Assembly (NCBI RefSeq): GCF_044324785.1
Contig: NZ_CP172128.1
Length of the DNA stretch: 64,000 nt
Source: Escherichia coli
GTDB taxonomy: Bacteria > Pseudomonadota > Gammaproteobacteria > Enterobacterales > Enterobacteriaceae
Strand: one strand, 5' to 3'
Below are positions 49,195 to 60,897 of the stretch, in pieces. The notes beneath the pieces are model-generated. The model ran no database searches. It was not told the DNA's origin and was given only the letters and a program-made list of their open reading frames with translations. The position numbers were made by a program, and so were the translations under genes. The first letter of the stretch is position 1, and every line of letters starts with the position of its first letter.

Positions 49195-49551
49195 GATGTC
49201 GCCGGCGGCTCCGCTTTACCCGGCCATGCGGGGCATGGCCTTGTGGGTTTTCAACTCTGTAGCCTCAGCGTCGTGTGCGGGCTGTGCCGTGCCTCCATCG
49301 TAGCCGGGCTTCTGCGGGCGGGTTGCAAGGTAAGGTGAACCGCTGCGGTCACCCGGTCCCTCCTTCCCGTCTGCCGTGATTTTCCGGTCGTTCACCCGCT
49401 CAGATTTCGCGGTCTCACCCTCCAACTCCCGTCAGCCGTGTGCGTCAGGCTGCGGCTTCCCTTGCGCCCTTGCAACCCTGCAGGCCCGGCAAAGATGGAG
49501 GCACGGCACCGCCCGGTGTCGCGGAATATGTGAACAACGGAGGAAAACATC
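49195..49551 (+). repeat. GC-rich structured leading-region repeat, type B copy 1 (Frpo/ssi-like)
   Basis: ~360 bp nearly identical to 56148-56507; ends at klcA start. Confidence 0.6.
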
Positions 49552-49977
49552 ATGCAATATGCGAAACCTGTCACTCTGAATGTTGAAGAGTGCGACCGTC
49601 TCTCCTTTCTGCCTTACCTGTTTGGCAACGATTTTCTGTATGCCGAGGCGTATGTGTACGCGCTGGCGCAAAAAATGATGCCGGAATATCAGGGAGGCTT
49701 CTGGCACTTCATCCGCCTGCCGGACGGTGGCGGTTACATGATGCCGGATGGCGACCGTTTCCACATGGTGAACGGTGCAAACTGGTTTGACCGTACCGTG
49801 AGTGCTGATGCCTGCGGCATCATTCTGACTTCCCTTGTGATTAACCGCCAGTTGTGGCTGTACCACGACAGCGGGGATGCGGGACTGACACACCTTTACC
49901 GGATGCGCGATGCGCAGTTGTGGAGCCACATCGAATTTCACCCCGAATGCAATGCGATTTACGCGGCACTGGACTGA
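49552..49977 (+). CDS. klcA: KlcA/ArdB-family antirestriction protein
   Basis: 141 aa, size and sequence character of KlcA/ArdB. Confidence 0.65.
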
Positions 49978-50023
49978 TTAACGGACGGGGCGGCGATGCC
50001 GCCCCTGTAAAGGAGACGAGAAC

Positions 50024-50443
50024 ATGTACTGTACTGTTAAAGAAATTATCCGCGAAGTGCTGGATACAGACGTGCCGGACAGTGAATGCGTTTTTGCTGT
50101 GGTGCTGACCCGTGGGGATGTACGTCACATAGCCCGGGACTGGAACCTGACAGACGATGAGCTGGAAACCGTCATGCAGCGGCTGGACGATGCCTTTGAG
50201 CATGGTGCTGATGTCAGCATTGTTCACGACGTTGTTCGTGAACTGATGGAGGAAAAGCGCGTAAACCGTCTTGTAACAGTCCCTGCGGTGCTGCTGGAAA
50301 AAGTGATGGTGATGGCTGGTAGTGAAATTTATCGCCTCCATGCTGTAGGGAGCGAGAACGGGGGCGACGGTGACGCATTTGTCAGGGAAGAACGTGAGAT
50401 TATGCGGTTGATGCGTCAGGCGCTGGACGGGGAGAACGGGTAA
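50024..50443 (+). CDS. hypothetical leading-region protein
   Basis: 139-aa ORF, acidic; not recognised. Confidence 0.45.
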   Translation: MYCTVKEIIREVLDTDVPDSECVFAVVLTRGDVRHIARDWNLTDDELETVMQRLDDAFEHGADVSIVHDVVRELMEEKRVNRLVTVPAVLLEKVMVMAGSEIYRLHAVGSENGGDGDAFVREEREIMRLMRQALDGENG

Positions 50444-50634
50444 TGAATATCAGCACAGAAACCCGCGAAATTCTGCGCAATTACAAAGCCGTGATTAATG
50501 CACGACGTCGTGAGATGGGGCAGAAACCGCTCACCACCGCGCAGATTGTTGATGAAATCTGCGATTTTGTGGCAAATCAGCAGGCTGTTTTCCTCGGCGG
50601 TCACTACATCCTTCAGGGCAGCAGAAACAGGTGA
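50443..50634 (+). CDS. hypothetical small protein
   Basis: 63-aa ORF with start overlapping upstream stop. Confidence 0.35.
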   Translation: MNISTETREILRNYKAVINARRREMGQKPLTTAQIVDEICDFVANQQAVFLGGHYILQGSRNR

Positions 50635-50835
50635 TACAGGGCAGGCGGTGGAGGCCGCCTGTCAGCCCGCGCGAAAACCCCTGGCAGGCTGACGCCTGCC
50701 GGAAATGCGGGGTGCAGCGCCTGCGGCGCTGCCGGCCCGGCTTTCCGGTCAGAAGATAGTGTATGGCTGTATGCCAGGAACAGGTGCGATATTCCGTGAC
50801 ACTGTCACTGTTTCTGGCTGTCTTTTATTGCGCCC

Positions 50836-51403
50836 ACTTCGGCTCCCGGCTGCCTGGCGGCATCCGGTCGTCAGGCCCGACTACGACAGGCAGCTGCTTG
50901 CGCACCCGCCAGTCTCCGCCGAACCCGCTGGCGCGGTTTCGGGCTGTCGCTACGGTCCGATGCGTGAAAAACCGGGCTTGCAGCGACCGTTCCGGTCGCG
51001 CCGCCTCTGTCGCGCCGTGACCTGCGCTCCCTGCACACCTGACGGTGTGTGAGGAAACTGCGCCTGATGGCGCAGCAGTCTTCCCTCCTGCCGCCACCTC
51101 TGCGGCCTGTTTCCCGCTGTGGACTTTCCGGGGGGCAGACGTAACCCCCTCCCGTTCCATCTGTCCAGGGTGAGATGCACCGGCCACAAAATTTTTAGCC
51201 ATGAACCCGGCTAAAAATTTTGCGTCCGCCCCCGGACAGCTGTCCCGTGAGGCGGTAAACGGGCCCCCATCGGAAAGGTCCACTGCGGGGAGAAACCCCT
51301 GTGAAGTGGACGGCAGGAGGAGCTTTCGCTCCTCTGAAGGGGCACATGAACGTCCCGTCGCCGGTATCCGGTTTATCTCACATCTTTCAGTCAGGAGGTT
51401 CTT
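50836..51403 (+). repeat. GC-rich structured leading-region repeat, type A copy 1 (Frpo/ssi-like)
   Basis: homologous to 57192-57739 and 60527-60897; ends at ssb start. Confidence 0.6.
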
Positions 51404-51931
51404 ATGAGTGCACGTGGTATCAACAAGGTCATCCTCGTCGGGCGTCTGGGCAATGATCCGGAAGTCCGTTACATCCCCAACGGGGGCGCAGTGGCAAACC
51501 TGCAGGTGGCCACGTCAGAAAGCTGGCGCGACAAACAGACGGGGGAGATGCGGGAGCAGACGGAATGGCACCGCGTGGTGCTGTTCGGCAAGCTCGCGGA
51601 AGTGGCAGGTGAATATCTGCGCAAGGGCGCGCAGGTCTACATCGAGGGGCAACTCCGTACCCGTAGCTGGGAAGATAACGGTATCACCCGTTACGTCACT
51701 GAAATTCTTGTTAAGACCACGGGCACCATGCAGATGCTGGGGAGTGCACCACAGCAGAACGCTCAGGCGCAACCGAAGCCTCAGCAGAATGGGCAGCCAC
51801 AGAGTGCTGACGCGACGAAAAAAGGTGGCGCGAAAACGAAAGGCCGTGGACGTAAGGCCGCGCAGCCCGAGTCTCAGCCGCAACCGCCGGAGGGGGAGGA
51901 TTACGGGTTTTCAGACGATATCCCGTTCTGA
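51404..51931 (+). CDS. ssb: plasmid single-stranded DNA-binding protein
   Basis: OB-fold N-terminus [23 protein letters not shown].., Gly/Gln-rich linker, acidic tail DDIPF. Confidence 0.9.
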
Positions 51932-51982
51932 CTGGCCTGACTGTGATAACCGCCCCGCCCTGCGCGGGGCATCACCGGAGAT

Positions 51983-52222
51983 ATGAGGATGAGCGAATAT
52001 TTCAGAATACTTCAGGGACTGCCTGACGGTCCTTTTACCCGCAAACAGGCCGAAGCCGTTGCCGCACAGTACCGGAACGTCTTTATCGAGGATGACCACG
52101 GAGAACATTTTCGCCTGGTTGTCCGTAATAACGGAACAATGGTCTGGCGTACCTGGAATTTTGAGGACGGTGCCGGGTACTGGATGAACCATGTCATCCG
52201 GGATTTCGGCATTCTTAAGTAA
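51983..52222 (+). CDS. hypothetical small leading-region protein
   Basis: 79-aa ORF between ssb and the ParB-like gene. Confidence 0.45.
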
Positions 52223-52285
52223 GAGAGGTGCCGGACGGGAACGCGTCCGGCAGACATACAACCATCCCGGTCAAAGGAGAAATAT

Positions 52286-59571: not shown

Positions 59572-59598
59572 AAGCCCGGCAAAATGCCGGGTTTTTTT
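59572..59598 (+). terminator. rho-independent terminator-like hairpin
   Basis: AAAGCCCGGCAAAATGCCGGGTTTTTTTG. Confidence 0.6.
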
Positions 59599-59622
59599 GT
59601 CAGCAGGAGCAGAGCAAACAGC

Positions 59623-59784
59623 ATGACGATTGCAGAACGTCTTGAGCAAAAAGGTCGCCAGGAAGGAGCGCTTGAAAAAGCCCTGGCCATTGCGTGCCAG
59701 CTTCAGAAAATGGGGATGACGCCGGAGCAGATTAAGCAGGCTACCGGACTGTCCGAAGCTGAACTGAAAAAAATCATTCACTGA
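59623..59784 (+). CDS. stand-alone Rpn C-terminal-domain paralog (53 aa)
   Basis: MTIAERLEQKG..GLSEAELKKIIH parallels the C-terminus of the upstream Rpn-like protein. Confidence 0.45.
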   Translation: MTIAERLEQKGRQEGALEKALAIACQLQKMGMTPEQIKQATGLSEAELKKIIH

Positions 59785-59794
59785 TGAGAGCATC

Positions 59795-59822
59795 ACAGCC
59801 CGGCAGAATGCCGGGCTTTTTT
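59795..59822 (+). terminator. rho-independent terminator-like hairpin
   Basis: CAGCCCGGCAGAATGCCGGGCTTTTTTG. Confidence 0.6.
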
Positions 59823-59842
59823 GCCAGCAGGGGCAGAGCAGT

Positions 59843-60037
59843 ATGACTATTGCAGAACGTCTTATACAGAAAGGTTTCGACGAGGGTTTTAAACAAGGTT
59901 TTAAACAAGGGGCTCTTGAAGTGGCGCGGGAAATAGCCTGCCGGCTGCGGGATATAGGCTGGCCGCCGGAACGGATTCAGGAGGTCACGGGACTTTCCGG
60001 TGAAGAACTGAAAAAGCTGTTTCCTGATGAGCAGTAG
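59843..60037 (+). CDS. stand-alone Rpn C-terminal-domain paralog (64 aa)
   Basis: MTIAERLIQKG..GLSGEELKKLF parallels the same domain. Confidence 0.45.
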   Translation: MTIAERLIQKGFDEGFKQGFKQGALEVAREIACRLRDIGWPPERIQEVTGLSGEELKKLFPDEQ

Positions 60038-60068
60038 CCTGGCATTCAGCCAGGCTGTGAATCACCGC

Positions 60069-60320
60069 TCACACATCCTCTGCCGTTTCCCCCAGTTCAT
60101 TTTCCAGTCGCCTGATGATATCTGCCTTACGCATCCCCTGCATGTGAGGCAGCAGGTCACGGACTGAAAGAGCCTGGGTGGTCCTCCAGACGGTGACGTC
60201 CACCTGTTCCGCATTTTCCCAGGCGTGCCATGTTCTCTGCGTCACGCCAAATTCTCTGGCCGCTTTTTCGCGTGACCAGAGCATGCTTTTTCGCCAGATT
60301 CGCAGTTCCCAGCCGGTCAT
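60069..60320 (-). CDS. small HTH-type DNA-binding protein, putative
   Basis: 83-aa ORF; inverted repeat AAAGTGAAAAAACTTCACTTT just upstream of its start. Confidence 0.4.
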   Translation of the reverse strand: MTGWELRIWRKSMLWSREKAAREFGVTQRTWHAWENAEQVDVTVWRTTQALSVRDLLPHMQGMRKADIIRRLENELGETAEDV

Positions 60321-60526
60321 AAAACACCTTTGAAAAAGTGAAAAAACTTCACTTTATTTTATCATCATAATCATCAAATCAGCGCGATAAATAAGTGTAA
60401 AAAAATGAAGAAATTTCACTTTTTTTTGCTTGTAAATGTCGTGCGGTTTTCTCTGTTTTCACCTGTGCGGGAGTGGTGTGCCAGTGACCACCACATGCCA
60501 TTGTTGTGCCGTCGTTTTTCTTCAGT

Positions 60527-60897
60527 CGCGCCGTATGCGGCGCTCCCTGCACACCTTACGGTGTGTAAGGCCACTGCGCCTGATGGCGCAGCTGTCTCTG
60601 CCTGTCTGCCGCCGCACTGCGGCCTGTTCTCCGCAGACGGACTTTCCGGGGGTACATACATGACCACATCCCGTTTCAGTCGTCCAGGGGAGAGATGTAC
60701 CAGCCACAAAACTTTTTGCCGCAGGCGTCAAAAACTTTTGCGTCTGCCCCCGGACAACTGCCCCGTGACGTGGTGAGCGTCCCCCGTCGGAAAGGTCCAC
60801 TGCGGGGAAATCCCCGAAGACCCGGACGGCAGAAGGAGCTTCGCTCCTCCGGGAAATGACCTGGCTGACCCGGCAGTCGTGACGATGAGGAGACAAT
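60527..60897 (+). repeat. GC-rich structured leading-region repeat, type A copy 3 (Frpo/ssi-like)
   Basis: homologous to the 3' ~370 bp of the other type A copies. Confidence 0.6.

Follow-up and report, generated by a model that had tools for sequence, protein, structure and literature searches.

Five GC-rich repeats of two types precede genes in the window analyzed here, the whole 64,000-nucleotide (nt) stretch of Escherichia coli contig NZ_CP172128.1, and these repeats are very probably single-strand DNA promoters of a conjugative leading region. Three of them (type A: A1, A2 and A3) were assigned to class 1, which comprises the Frpo and ssi1-3 elements, and two (type B: B1 and B2) to class 2, the ssp2 type. 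For the repeats of the window, this reading was based on homology, orientation, strand-specific folding, covariation of stem pairs and the pattern of the class 2 promoter motif; single-strand-specific transcription, start sites, priming and the roadblock to complementary-strand synthesis were taken from the literature. Elements of this kind, including the two sequence types and their target genes, are already described, and the finding is correct but ordinary.

The original prediction had listed five GC-rich, structured copies of two types that end at the starts of genes and are filled with spurious open reading frames (ORFs) on both strands, and each of these features was recovered. All five copies were present at the positions first given, or no more than a few bases away, with A1 occupying 50837-51403 and A2 occupying 57191-57739 (coordinates of the other copies are in Table 1). 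A1 and A2 were 87% identical over 499 nt, and A3 shared with them only the gene-proximal ~335 to 355 nt, at 80 to 86% identity. As the similarity of A3 is limited to the promoter-proximal part, the 5' ~170 nt of A1 and A2 is without counterpart in A3. B1 and B2 were 92% identical over ~350 nt, and BLAST gave no match between the A and B types. The five intervals adjoined the starts of klcA, ssb, ardA, an ORF of 144 amino acids (aa) starting at 57740 (ORF 57740) and a gene encoding a DUF4942 protein; the similarity between B1 and B2 itself ended ~8 to 12 nt short of the start codons, and the ribosome-binding regions differ there. GC content was 62 to 66% in the five elements, compared to 51% in the window and 56% in the leading region, and fold z-scores ranged from -3.0 to -10.9. 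Long ORFs crossed the repeats on both strands. Insertions or deletions (indels) of 1 to 2 nt between copies break any common frame, and hence the ORFs inside the repeats are probably spurious. A RefSeq "hypothetical protein," WP_024126038.1, is annotated inside A1 (~50826-51203, minus strand), A2 and A3 are likewise covered by ORFs, and many PLSDB records annotate ORFs under such elements.

Comparison with sequenced plasmids placed the repeats in a conjugative context. Positions 47000 to 64000 of the window were 100% identical to E. coli plasmid pLH10-b-1-A (NZ_CP100531.1), which is typed as IncK2/Z, MOBP and MPF_I; a shift in the offsets of the coding sequences pointed to a single 1-nt indel between 49977 and 51404 relative to this record. 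The part of the window from 47 to 62 kb constitutes the leading region of an I-complex E. coli plasmid of the IncK2/Z type. Read from right to left, the gene order was nikB, nikA/mobA, the origin of transfer (oriT), a mobC-like gene, the DUF4942 gene, a gene for a helix-turn-helix regulator, an Rpn-family gene, the 144-aa ORF, ardA, psiA, psiB, a parB-like gene, a DUF905 gene, ssb, DUF1380 genes, klcA, a DUF1281 gene and dinI/umuDC. The leading region was collinear with those of ColIb-P9 and pESBL-EA11, and all of the leading genes were on the + strand. The sole exact copy of CATCCTGTC in the window was found on the minus strand at 62310-62318 and is presumably the IncI1/IncP-type nick core; this placement agreed with the synteny to ColIb-P9 and pESBL. 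The position of the nick core thus marks the minus strand as the one that is transferred, which has its 5' end near 62311 and enters towards lower coordinates. The transferred strand is the template of all of the + strand leading genes. Distances from the nick to the class 1 elements were 1.6 kb for A3, 4.8 kb for A2 and 11.1 kb for A1, in agreement with the coordinates of AJ238399, and A3 is the first of the promoters to enter the recipient, at ~1.6 kb from the nick.

The minus strand was folded as single-stranded DNA and compared with dinucleotide shuffles, a check that had been proposed with the original prediction. Fold z-scores of -10.9, -9.5 and -9.7 were obtained for A1, A2 and A3, respectively, and scores of -4.9 (-92.4 kcal/mol) and -3.0 (-88.9 kcal/mol) were obtained for B1 and B2. 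When all 64 kb were folded in sliding windows, the three strongest structures of the minus strand were the type A elements. The transferred strand was more stable than the + strand by 16 to 19 kcal/mol for class 1 (-111.4 versus -92.9 kcal/mol for the A1 core, -115.9 versus -99.9 kcal/mol for the A2 core and -105.2 versus -86.5 kcal/mol for A3) and by 4 to 5 kcal/mol for class 2. Several stem pairs of class 1 were G.T on the transferred strand and would become C.A in the opposite strand. Both types thus formed conserved hairpins that folded better on the transferred strand than shuffled sequences or the other strand.

Covariation within the stems was examined in alignments of homologues. The class 2 alignment consisted of eight sequences, namely, the window, ColIb-P9 and F copies and three divergent insect-metagenome candidates of Samuel et al. 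In the consensus stem, 25 pairs were changed on both sides, compared to 7.4 +/- 2.2 in shuffles and 3 to 7 in slid registers. The 11-sequence class 1 alignment contained 21 covarying pairs, compared to 14.0 +/- 1.8 in shuffles and 6 to 10 in slid controls, and covariation extended to 53 cells versus 21.5 in shuffles. These compensatory changes support the stems of both classes.

Homology and fold together identified A1 to A3 as predicted class 1 single-strand promoters of the Frpo/ssi1-3 type. The 778-nt ssb-upstream region that holds A1 was 99.7% identical to the ssb-upstream region of ColIb-P9; a 735-nt aligned region upstream of ORF 57740, with A2, was 95% identical to the ColIb-P9 ssi2 region, which lies 5' of the 144-aa ORF of that plasmid; and A3 was 99.4% identical to the region 5' of the ColIb-P9 DUF4942 gene. 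The three sequences that Samuel et al. list as ColIb "Frpo1-3", which are the ssi1-3 sites, lie within these ColIb-P9 regions. Frpo1 and Frpo2 of F were also homologous to type A, with apex and stem blocks in common. Class 1 elements have several names in the literature, including F ssiD and, for Frpo1/Frpo2, ssp1a/b (Masai and Arai 1997; Bates et al. 1999; Couturier et al. 2023; Wen et al. 2025). In the alignment of 11 sequences, the best-conserved motif of the non-template arm was CCCT(G/T/A)GACA, which is -35-like, and the stretch 16 to 21 nt past this motif was a variable mismatched region (TACGTC, CGCTTC, TGTATG). The apex of A2 (57538-57575) was identical to that of A3 (60704-60741), and the apex of ColIb-P9 ssi2 is instead ssi3-like, a distribution that suggests possible sequence exchange or gene conversion between dispersed class 1 copies.

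The ~170-nt extension of A1 and A2 lies beyond the ssi sequences (~330 nt) that Samuel et al. list and was present also in the ColIb-P9 counterparts and partly in the F copies. For A1, this extension folded significantly only on the transferred strand (z-score of -3.3, versus -1.2 for the + strand). By eye, part of the extension resembled the tails of distant Salmonella and insect-metagenome candidates. A GC-rich hairpin block without T-runs was shared by 50640-50740 and 57009-57110, ~100 to 200 nt upstream of A1 and A2; an example from this block is CCTGGCAGGCTGACGCCTGCC (repeat D10), and the block is also conserved upstream of F Frpo2.

Alignment likewise identified B1 and B2 as putative class 2 single-strand promoters of the ssp2 type. 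Both aligned over their full length with the regions upstream of klcA and ardA in ColIb-P9 and pESBL and upstream of yfgB in F, at 85 to 91% identity. All eight sequences shared the TTG of the -35 and GCCCGGCTA...T (TA...T, which includes the -10) on the non-template arm, and on the 5' arm the letters opposite the -10 were variable and mismatched. This pattern of conservation is that expected if sigma-70 were to read the non-template arm of the hairpin. A start site for B1 would be predicted near 49502-49504, ~7 nt past the -10, and would leave a leader of ~49 nt to the klcA ATG, with a GGAGG ribosome-binding site. The original prediction would have been refuted by the lack of a conserved hairpin carrying -35- and -10-like elements, and this refutation did not occur: both types formed conserved hairpins on the transferred strand, hexamers resembling both elements were present on the non-template arm of class 2, and the -35-like element was the one conserved in class 1.

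Two further candidates were rejected. Class 2 and class 3 elements have at their 3' end GCGACATCCTT, which resembles a second nick-like site; the key A is kept in neither B2 nor ColIb-P9, and so the resemblance was treated as chance. A sixth hairpin 5' of the DUF1281 gene (48040-48220) had been considered for its class 2-like words (GATGGAGGC) and was rejected because its single strand was no more stable than shuffled sequences (z-score of -1.1). The class 2-like words in this interval were CCTCCTCA ... GATGGAGGCC and ATGTGAGAGGAG, and the interval may be a degenerate class 2 relic.

Studies of orthologous plasmids suggest how the five elements would act. In pESBL transconjugants, Wen et al. 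(NAR 2025, PMC12672017) detected induction of six operons, with a hairpin 5' of each, and mapped all six transcription starts by 5' rapid amplification of cDNA ends; induction of the leading genes reached up to ~500-fold. In their scheme, class 1 comprises ssi1-3 and the Frpos, class 2 lies 5' of klcA and ardA, and class 3 lies 5' of M.EcoGIX. Single-strand-specific transcription from starts within the hairpin, silencing on conversion and priming of DNA synthesis by the RNA are published for the F and pESBL orthologues of class 1, and early expression in F was abolished on deletion of Frpo1 or Frpo2 (Couturier et al. 2023). By analogy, the relaxase would nick oriT at about 62311 on the minus strand, and this strand would enter the recipient 5' end first. 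On entry, each element would fold into a long imperfect hairpin with the 3' arm as the non-template and the 5' arm as the template. The host sigma-70 RNA polymerase would bind the duplex-like -35/-10 region of the hairpin and transcribe out of the hairpin base into the downstream genes before a complementary strand exists. A3 would serve the DUF4942 gene; A2, ORF 57740 and the genes after it; B2, ardA; A1, ssb, the parB-like gene, psiB and psiA; and B1, klcA. Synthesis of the complementary strand would flatten the hairpins and switch the promoters off, so that the genes against restriction and the SOS response would be induced only transiently ("zygotic induction"). By homology only, class 1 transcripts could also prime complementary-strand synthesis; homology to F similarly suggests that class 2 elements may stall this synthesis until UvrD melts the hairpin and so lengthen the window of expression.

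Several observations weigh against the interpretation of the repeats as single-strand promoters. The strand asymmetry of class 2 was small, at 4 to 5 kcal/mol, and the covariation sets were small (8 and 11 sequences) and included close relatives. A conserved class 1 -10 hexamer was not detected across the 11 homologues in any of several registers tried. The promoter function ascribed to the window elements rests on their orthologues, and the class 2 allele of the window (described below) differs exactly in the promoter core, so its activity would be an extrapolation.

Part of the same evidence could be read in terms of DNA processing. Frpo was originally discovered as a site of single-strand initiation, its RNA serving as a primer for DNA synthesis. 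Copying of the complementary strand is stalled by F ssp2 at the stem end, and the extension of A1 and A2 folds only on the transferred strand and is without a promoter motif; the repeats might then be mainly ssi priming sites or replication roadblocks, with transcription starting elsewhere. We consider this improbable, as DNA processing is an additional function of the same elements and not an exclusive alternative and as the sigma-70 scan revealed no other promoter-like site before the five genes. The position of the elements directly upstream of genes would also suit ordinary double-strand promoters with long structured mRNA leaders acting as attenuators or in translational control, and part of each 5' arm would indeed be transcribed and holds small local hairpins. 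The fold data argue against such leaders, however, as the sense strand of class 1 is the less stable one and the G.T pairs become C.A pairs on it. Moreover, the conserved class 2 promoter letters lie on the untranscribed arm, and a start at the class 2 motif would be predicted to give an mRNA with only one arm of the main hairpin. An Rfam scan of 44 to 64 kb gave no family, only a sub-threshold chance match outside the elements. A scan of the + strand for consensus sigma-70 sites found none inside any of the five elements; its spacer rule was 16 to 18 nt, and the single-strand motifs fall outside this range and were neither found nor excluded by the scan. A structured leader behind a double-strand promoter therefore has a very low probability.

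The presence of several copies and of RefSeq "hypothetical protein" ORFs inside them could point instead to non-functional or selfish dispersed repeats (resembling miniature inverted-repeat transposable elements or repetitive extragenic palindromes, or remnants of insertion sequences) or to genes for small proteins. This is hardly credible: all copies have one orientation relative to oriT and, in F, ColIb-P9, pESBL and the window plasmid alike, stand at constant positions ahead of the same genes, and neither terminal inverted repeats with target duplications nor a transposase was seen. In addition, compensatory changes maintain the stems, and the small indels break the ORFs. Single-strand promoters thus remained the preferred explanation for all five repeats.

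The class 2 promoter core of the window was then compared with that of the published elements. In pESBL, ColIb-P9 and F, the non-template arm reads TTGCAT-N15-TAAGAT, and the same arrangement was seen by eye in the insect-metagenome Frpo' 4. In this published allele, the template arm has a bulge of 4 to 5 extra bases, and there is a 3x3 loop at the -10 (TAAGAT). The window allele has a spacer of 20 nt on the non-template arm and 15 nt on the template side, and TACGAT has two single mismatches; the 5-nt spacer asymmetry is therefore on the non-template arm, the reverse of the F/ColIb-P9/pESBL allele. Overall stability was the same in both alleles, at -89 to -95 kcal/mol. A 39-nt tag of the window allele was found in 1,394 PLSDB records, IncF and I-complex plasmids included, and one IncFIA plasmid among these records had both arms of the window type. 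An experimental test of the window allele was not found in the published work on class 2 elements that was examined. The window class 2 allele and the class 1 extension may be undescribed. It is conceivable, though rather doubtful, that the class 2 copies are a functionally distinct allele and, separately, that the ~170-nt class 1 extension is a separate cis module. If so, the class 2 allele could alter promoter strength or the UvrD-dependent roadblock and thereby change the duration of anti-restriction gene expression after entry, and the extension could serve, for example, in priming or stalling complementary-strand synthesis.

Table 1. Elements, their parts and associated features of the leading region (window coordinates)
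Feature	Position	Strand	Remarks
B1, class 2, upstream of klcA	49195-49551	minus	85 to 88% identical to ColIb-P9, pESBL and F class 2 elements
B1 non-template (3') arm	49287-49328	minus	TTGCAA-N20-TACGAT, then GGAGGCACGG
B1 template (5') arm	49470-49506	minus	+ strand reads TTGCAA-N15-AAAGAT; opposite promoter motif
B2, class 2, upstream of ardA	56150-56507	minus	91% identical to pESBL ardA-upstream element
B2 non-template arm	56243-56284	minus	TTGCAT-N20-TACGAT, then GGAGGCACGG
B2 template arm	56427-56463	minus	+ strand reads TTGCAT-N15-AAGGAT
A1 core, class 1 (Frpo/ssi3), upstream of ssb	51005-51365	minus	Homology and fold
A1 extension	50837-51004	minus	~170 nt of small hairpins, 3' side of class 1 hairpin on transferred strand
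A1 non-template arm	51121-51170	minus	-35-like CCCTGGACA, then variable mismatched region (TTACGT) and CCCCGGAAAGTCC
A1 hairpin apex	51184-51223	minus	A/T-rich inverted repeat GCAAAATTTTTAGCC / GGCTAAAAATTTTGTGG
A2 core, class 1 (ssi2), upstream of ORF 57740	57359-57715	minus	Homology and fold
A2 extension	57191-57358	minus	Homologous to A1 extension
A3, class 1 (ssi1), upstream of DUF4942 gene	60520-60897	minus	Homology and fold
klcA/ardB-type antirestriction gene	49552-49977	+	Downstream of B1; ATG at 49552
Plasmid ssb	51404-51931	+	Downstream of A1; NF010292, 386 bits
ardA antirestriction gene	56508-57008	+	Downstream of B2
ORF 57740, 144 aa	57740-58174	+	Downstream of A2; RefSeq name "PndC"
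DUF4942 gene	60901-61749	+	Downstream of A3; Pfam PF13708, E = 1.2e-49
oriT nick region CATCCTG/TC	62310-62318	minus	Between mobC-like gene and nikA/mobA; adjoins inverted repeat

Among the genes downstream of the elements (Table 1), ssb is the first gene of an operon of ssb, the DUF905 gene, the parB-like gene, psiB and psiA. The product of ORF 57740 had no match in Pfam or NCBIfam. Within the oriT core (62285-62370), the nick sequence is flanked by the inverted repeat GGTAATCGTATAGCCG / CGGTTATACGATTAC, and in the sliding fold this core likewise ranked with the more structured stretches. At its 3' end, the Rpn-family ORF (58508-59560) contains about 8 copies of a 12-nt tandem repeat, GGAATACAGCAG, at 59339-59466; this array is followed by 152-nt repeats (59465-59616 and 59689-59840) and three 48-nt copies, the whole region spanning 59323-59886. 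The C-terminal region of the Rpn protein thus appears to be repeated.

Assignment of the five intervals has practical consequences. The elements would time the first minutes of plasmid establishment, such that anti-restriction (KlcA and ArdA) and anti-SOS (PsiB) functions and SSB are expressed from the entering single strand before host defences act, which gives these elements a central part in how resistance plasmids spread. In the annotation, five intergenic "hypothetical" regions become class 1 or class 2 single-strand promoters, and the spurious ORFs can be dropped. Either the second class 2 allele or the class 1 extension might serve as a tool to relate hairpin geometry to promoter strength and roadblock behaviour.

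Folded single strands that are recognized by a polymerase and that lose their signal when double stranded are also found in the single-strand origins (sso) of rolling-circle plasmids and in the hairpin promoters of phage N4. An sso serves priming only, and the N4 promoters are small hairpins read by the phage polymerase. To our knowledge, neither has a sequence relation to the window elements.

Closer comparisons were possible with the three classes of leading-region elements. Class 3 elements, which lie before M.EcoGIX and include ssp3 of F, resemble the window in having the 5' boundary motif AAAGGA(T/A)GTCGCCG directly after the DUF1281 gene, but the element itself is absent from the window. 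With the ColIb-P9 class 3 sequence as the query, only the first 53 nt matched, at 49152-49204, and no methylase gene or module was found in the window. The junction falls in this motif, which forms the 5' start of both class 2 and class 3 elements; the corresponding site of ColIb-P9 and pESBL is occupied by the class 3 promoter, the single-strand methylase and additional genes. These findings are consistent with deletion of the class 3/methylase module or with a module that was never acquired.

The class 2 elements have counterparts in pESBL and in F, where one study of ssp2 described a promoter combined with a roadblock to complementary-strand synthesis that is resolved by UvrD (bioRxiv 10.64898/2026.01.09.698686) and another independently named the element 5' of yfgB "Frpo3" (bioRxiv 10.1101/2025.04.03.647016). 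B1 and B2 share with these elements the overall hairpin and loop and the invariant TTG and GCCCGGCTA...T, and they precede the same genes as in pESBL (klcA and ardA); they differ in the promoter core, where the spacer on the non-template arm is 20 nt long rather than 15 nt. Class 2 elements were found in at least 5,000 PLSDB records, at about two places per record.

For class 1, A1, A2 and A3 have the same positions, orientation and downstream genes as ssi3, ssi2 and ssi1 of ColIb-P9, respectively, and ssi1-3 were reported as Frpo homologues by Bates et al. (1999). Also in common are a long imperfect hairpin, its A/T-rich apex and, on the non-template arm, the -35-like TGGACA; F shares the apex and the -35 stem. 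Unlike ColIb-P9, the host plasmid of the window is IncK2/Z and not IncI1, and the A2 apex is of the A3 type and not the ssi3 type. A1 and A2 carry the conserved ~170-nt structured extension, which is not part of the ColIb Frpo1-3 sequences as listed (~330 nt). Full-length class 1 elements of the window type were found in at least 2,040 PLSDB records, the listed full-length matches typically falling at three places per record, and the class 1 core is shared by thousands of F-type plasmids in that database. In ColIb-P9 and pESBL, the five elements precede the same genes and are joined by a class 3 element, so that the window has one fewer. The original prediction had considered the number of copies and their use before uncharacterized genes to be notable; this was not supported, as three class 1 and two class 2 elements constitute the standard I-complex layout. 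Its reading of the repeats as Frpo/ssi-like was supported by the alignments with F and ColIb-P9 (95 to 99.7% identity to ColIb-P9 for type A) and was, if anything, too cautious, with A1, A2 and A3 being the positional orthologues of ssi3, ssi2 and ssi1 and type B belonging to class 2. The layout and targets are already published for the orthologues, and hence that interpretation was right and concerned elements already described.

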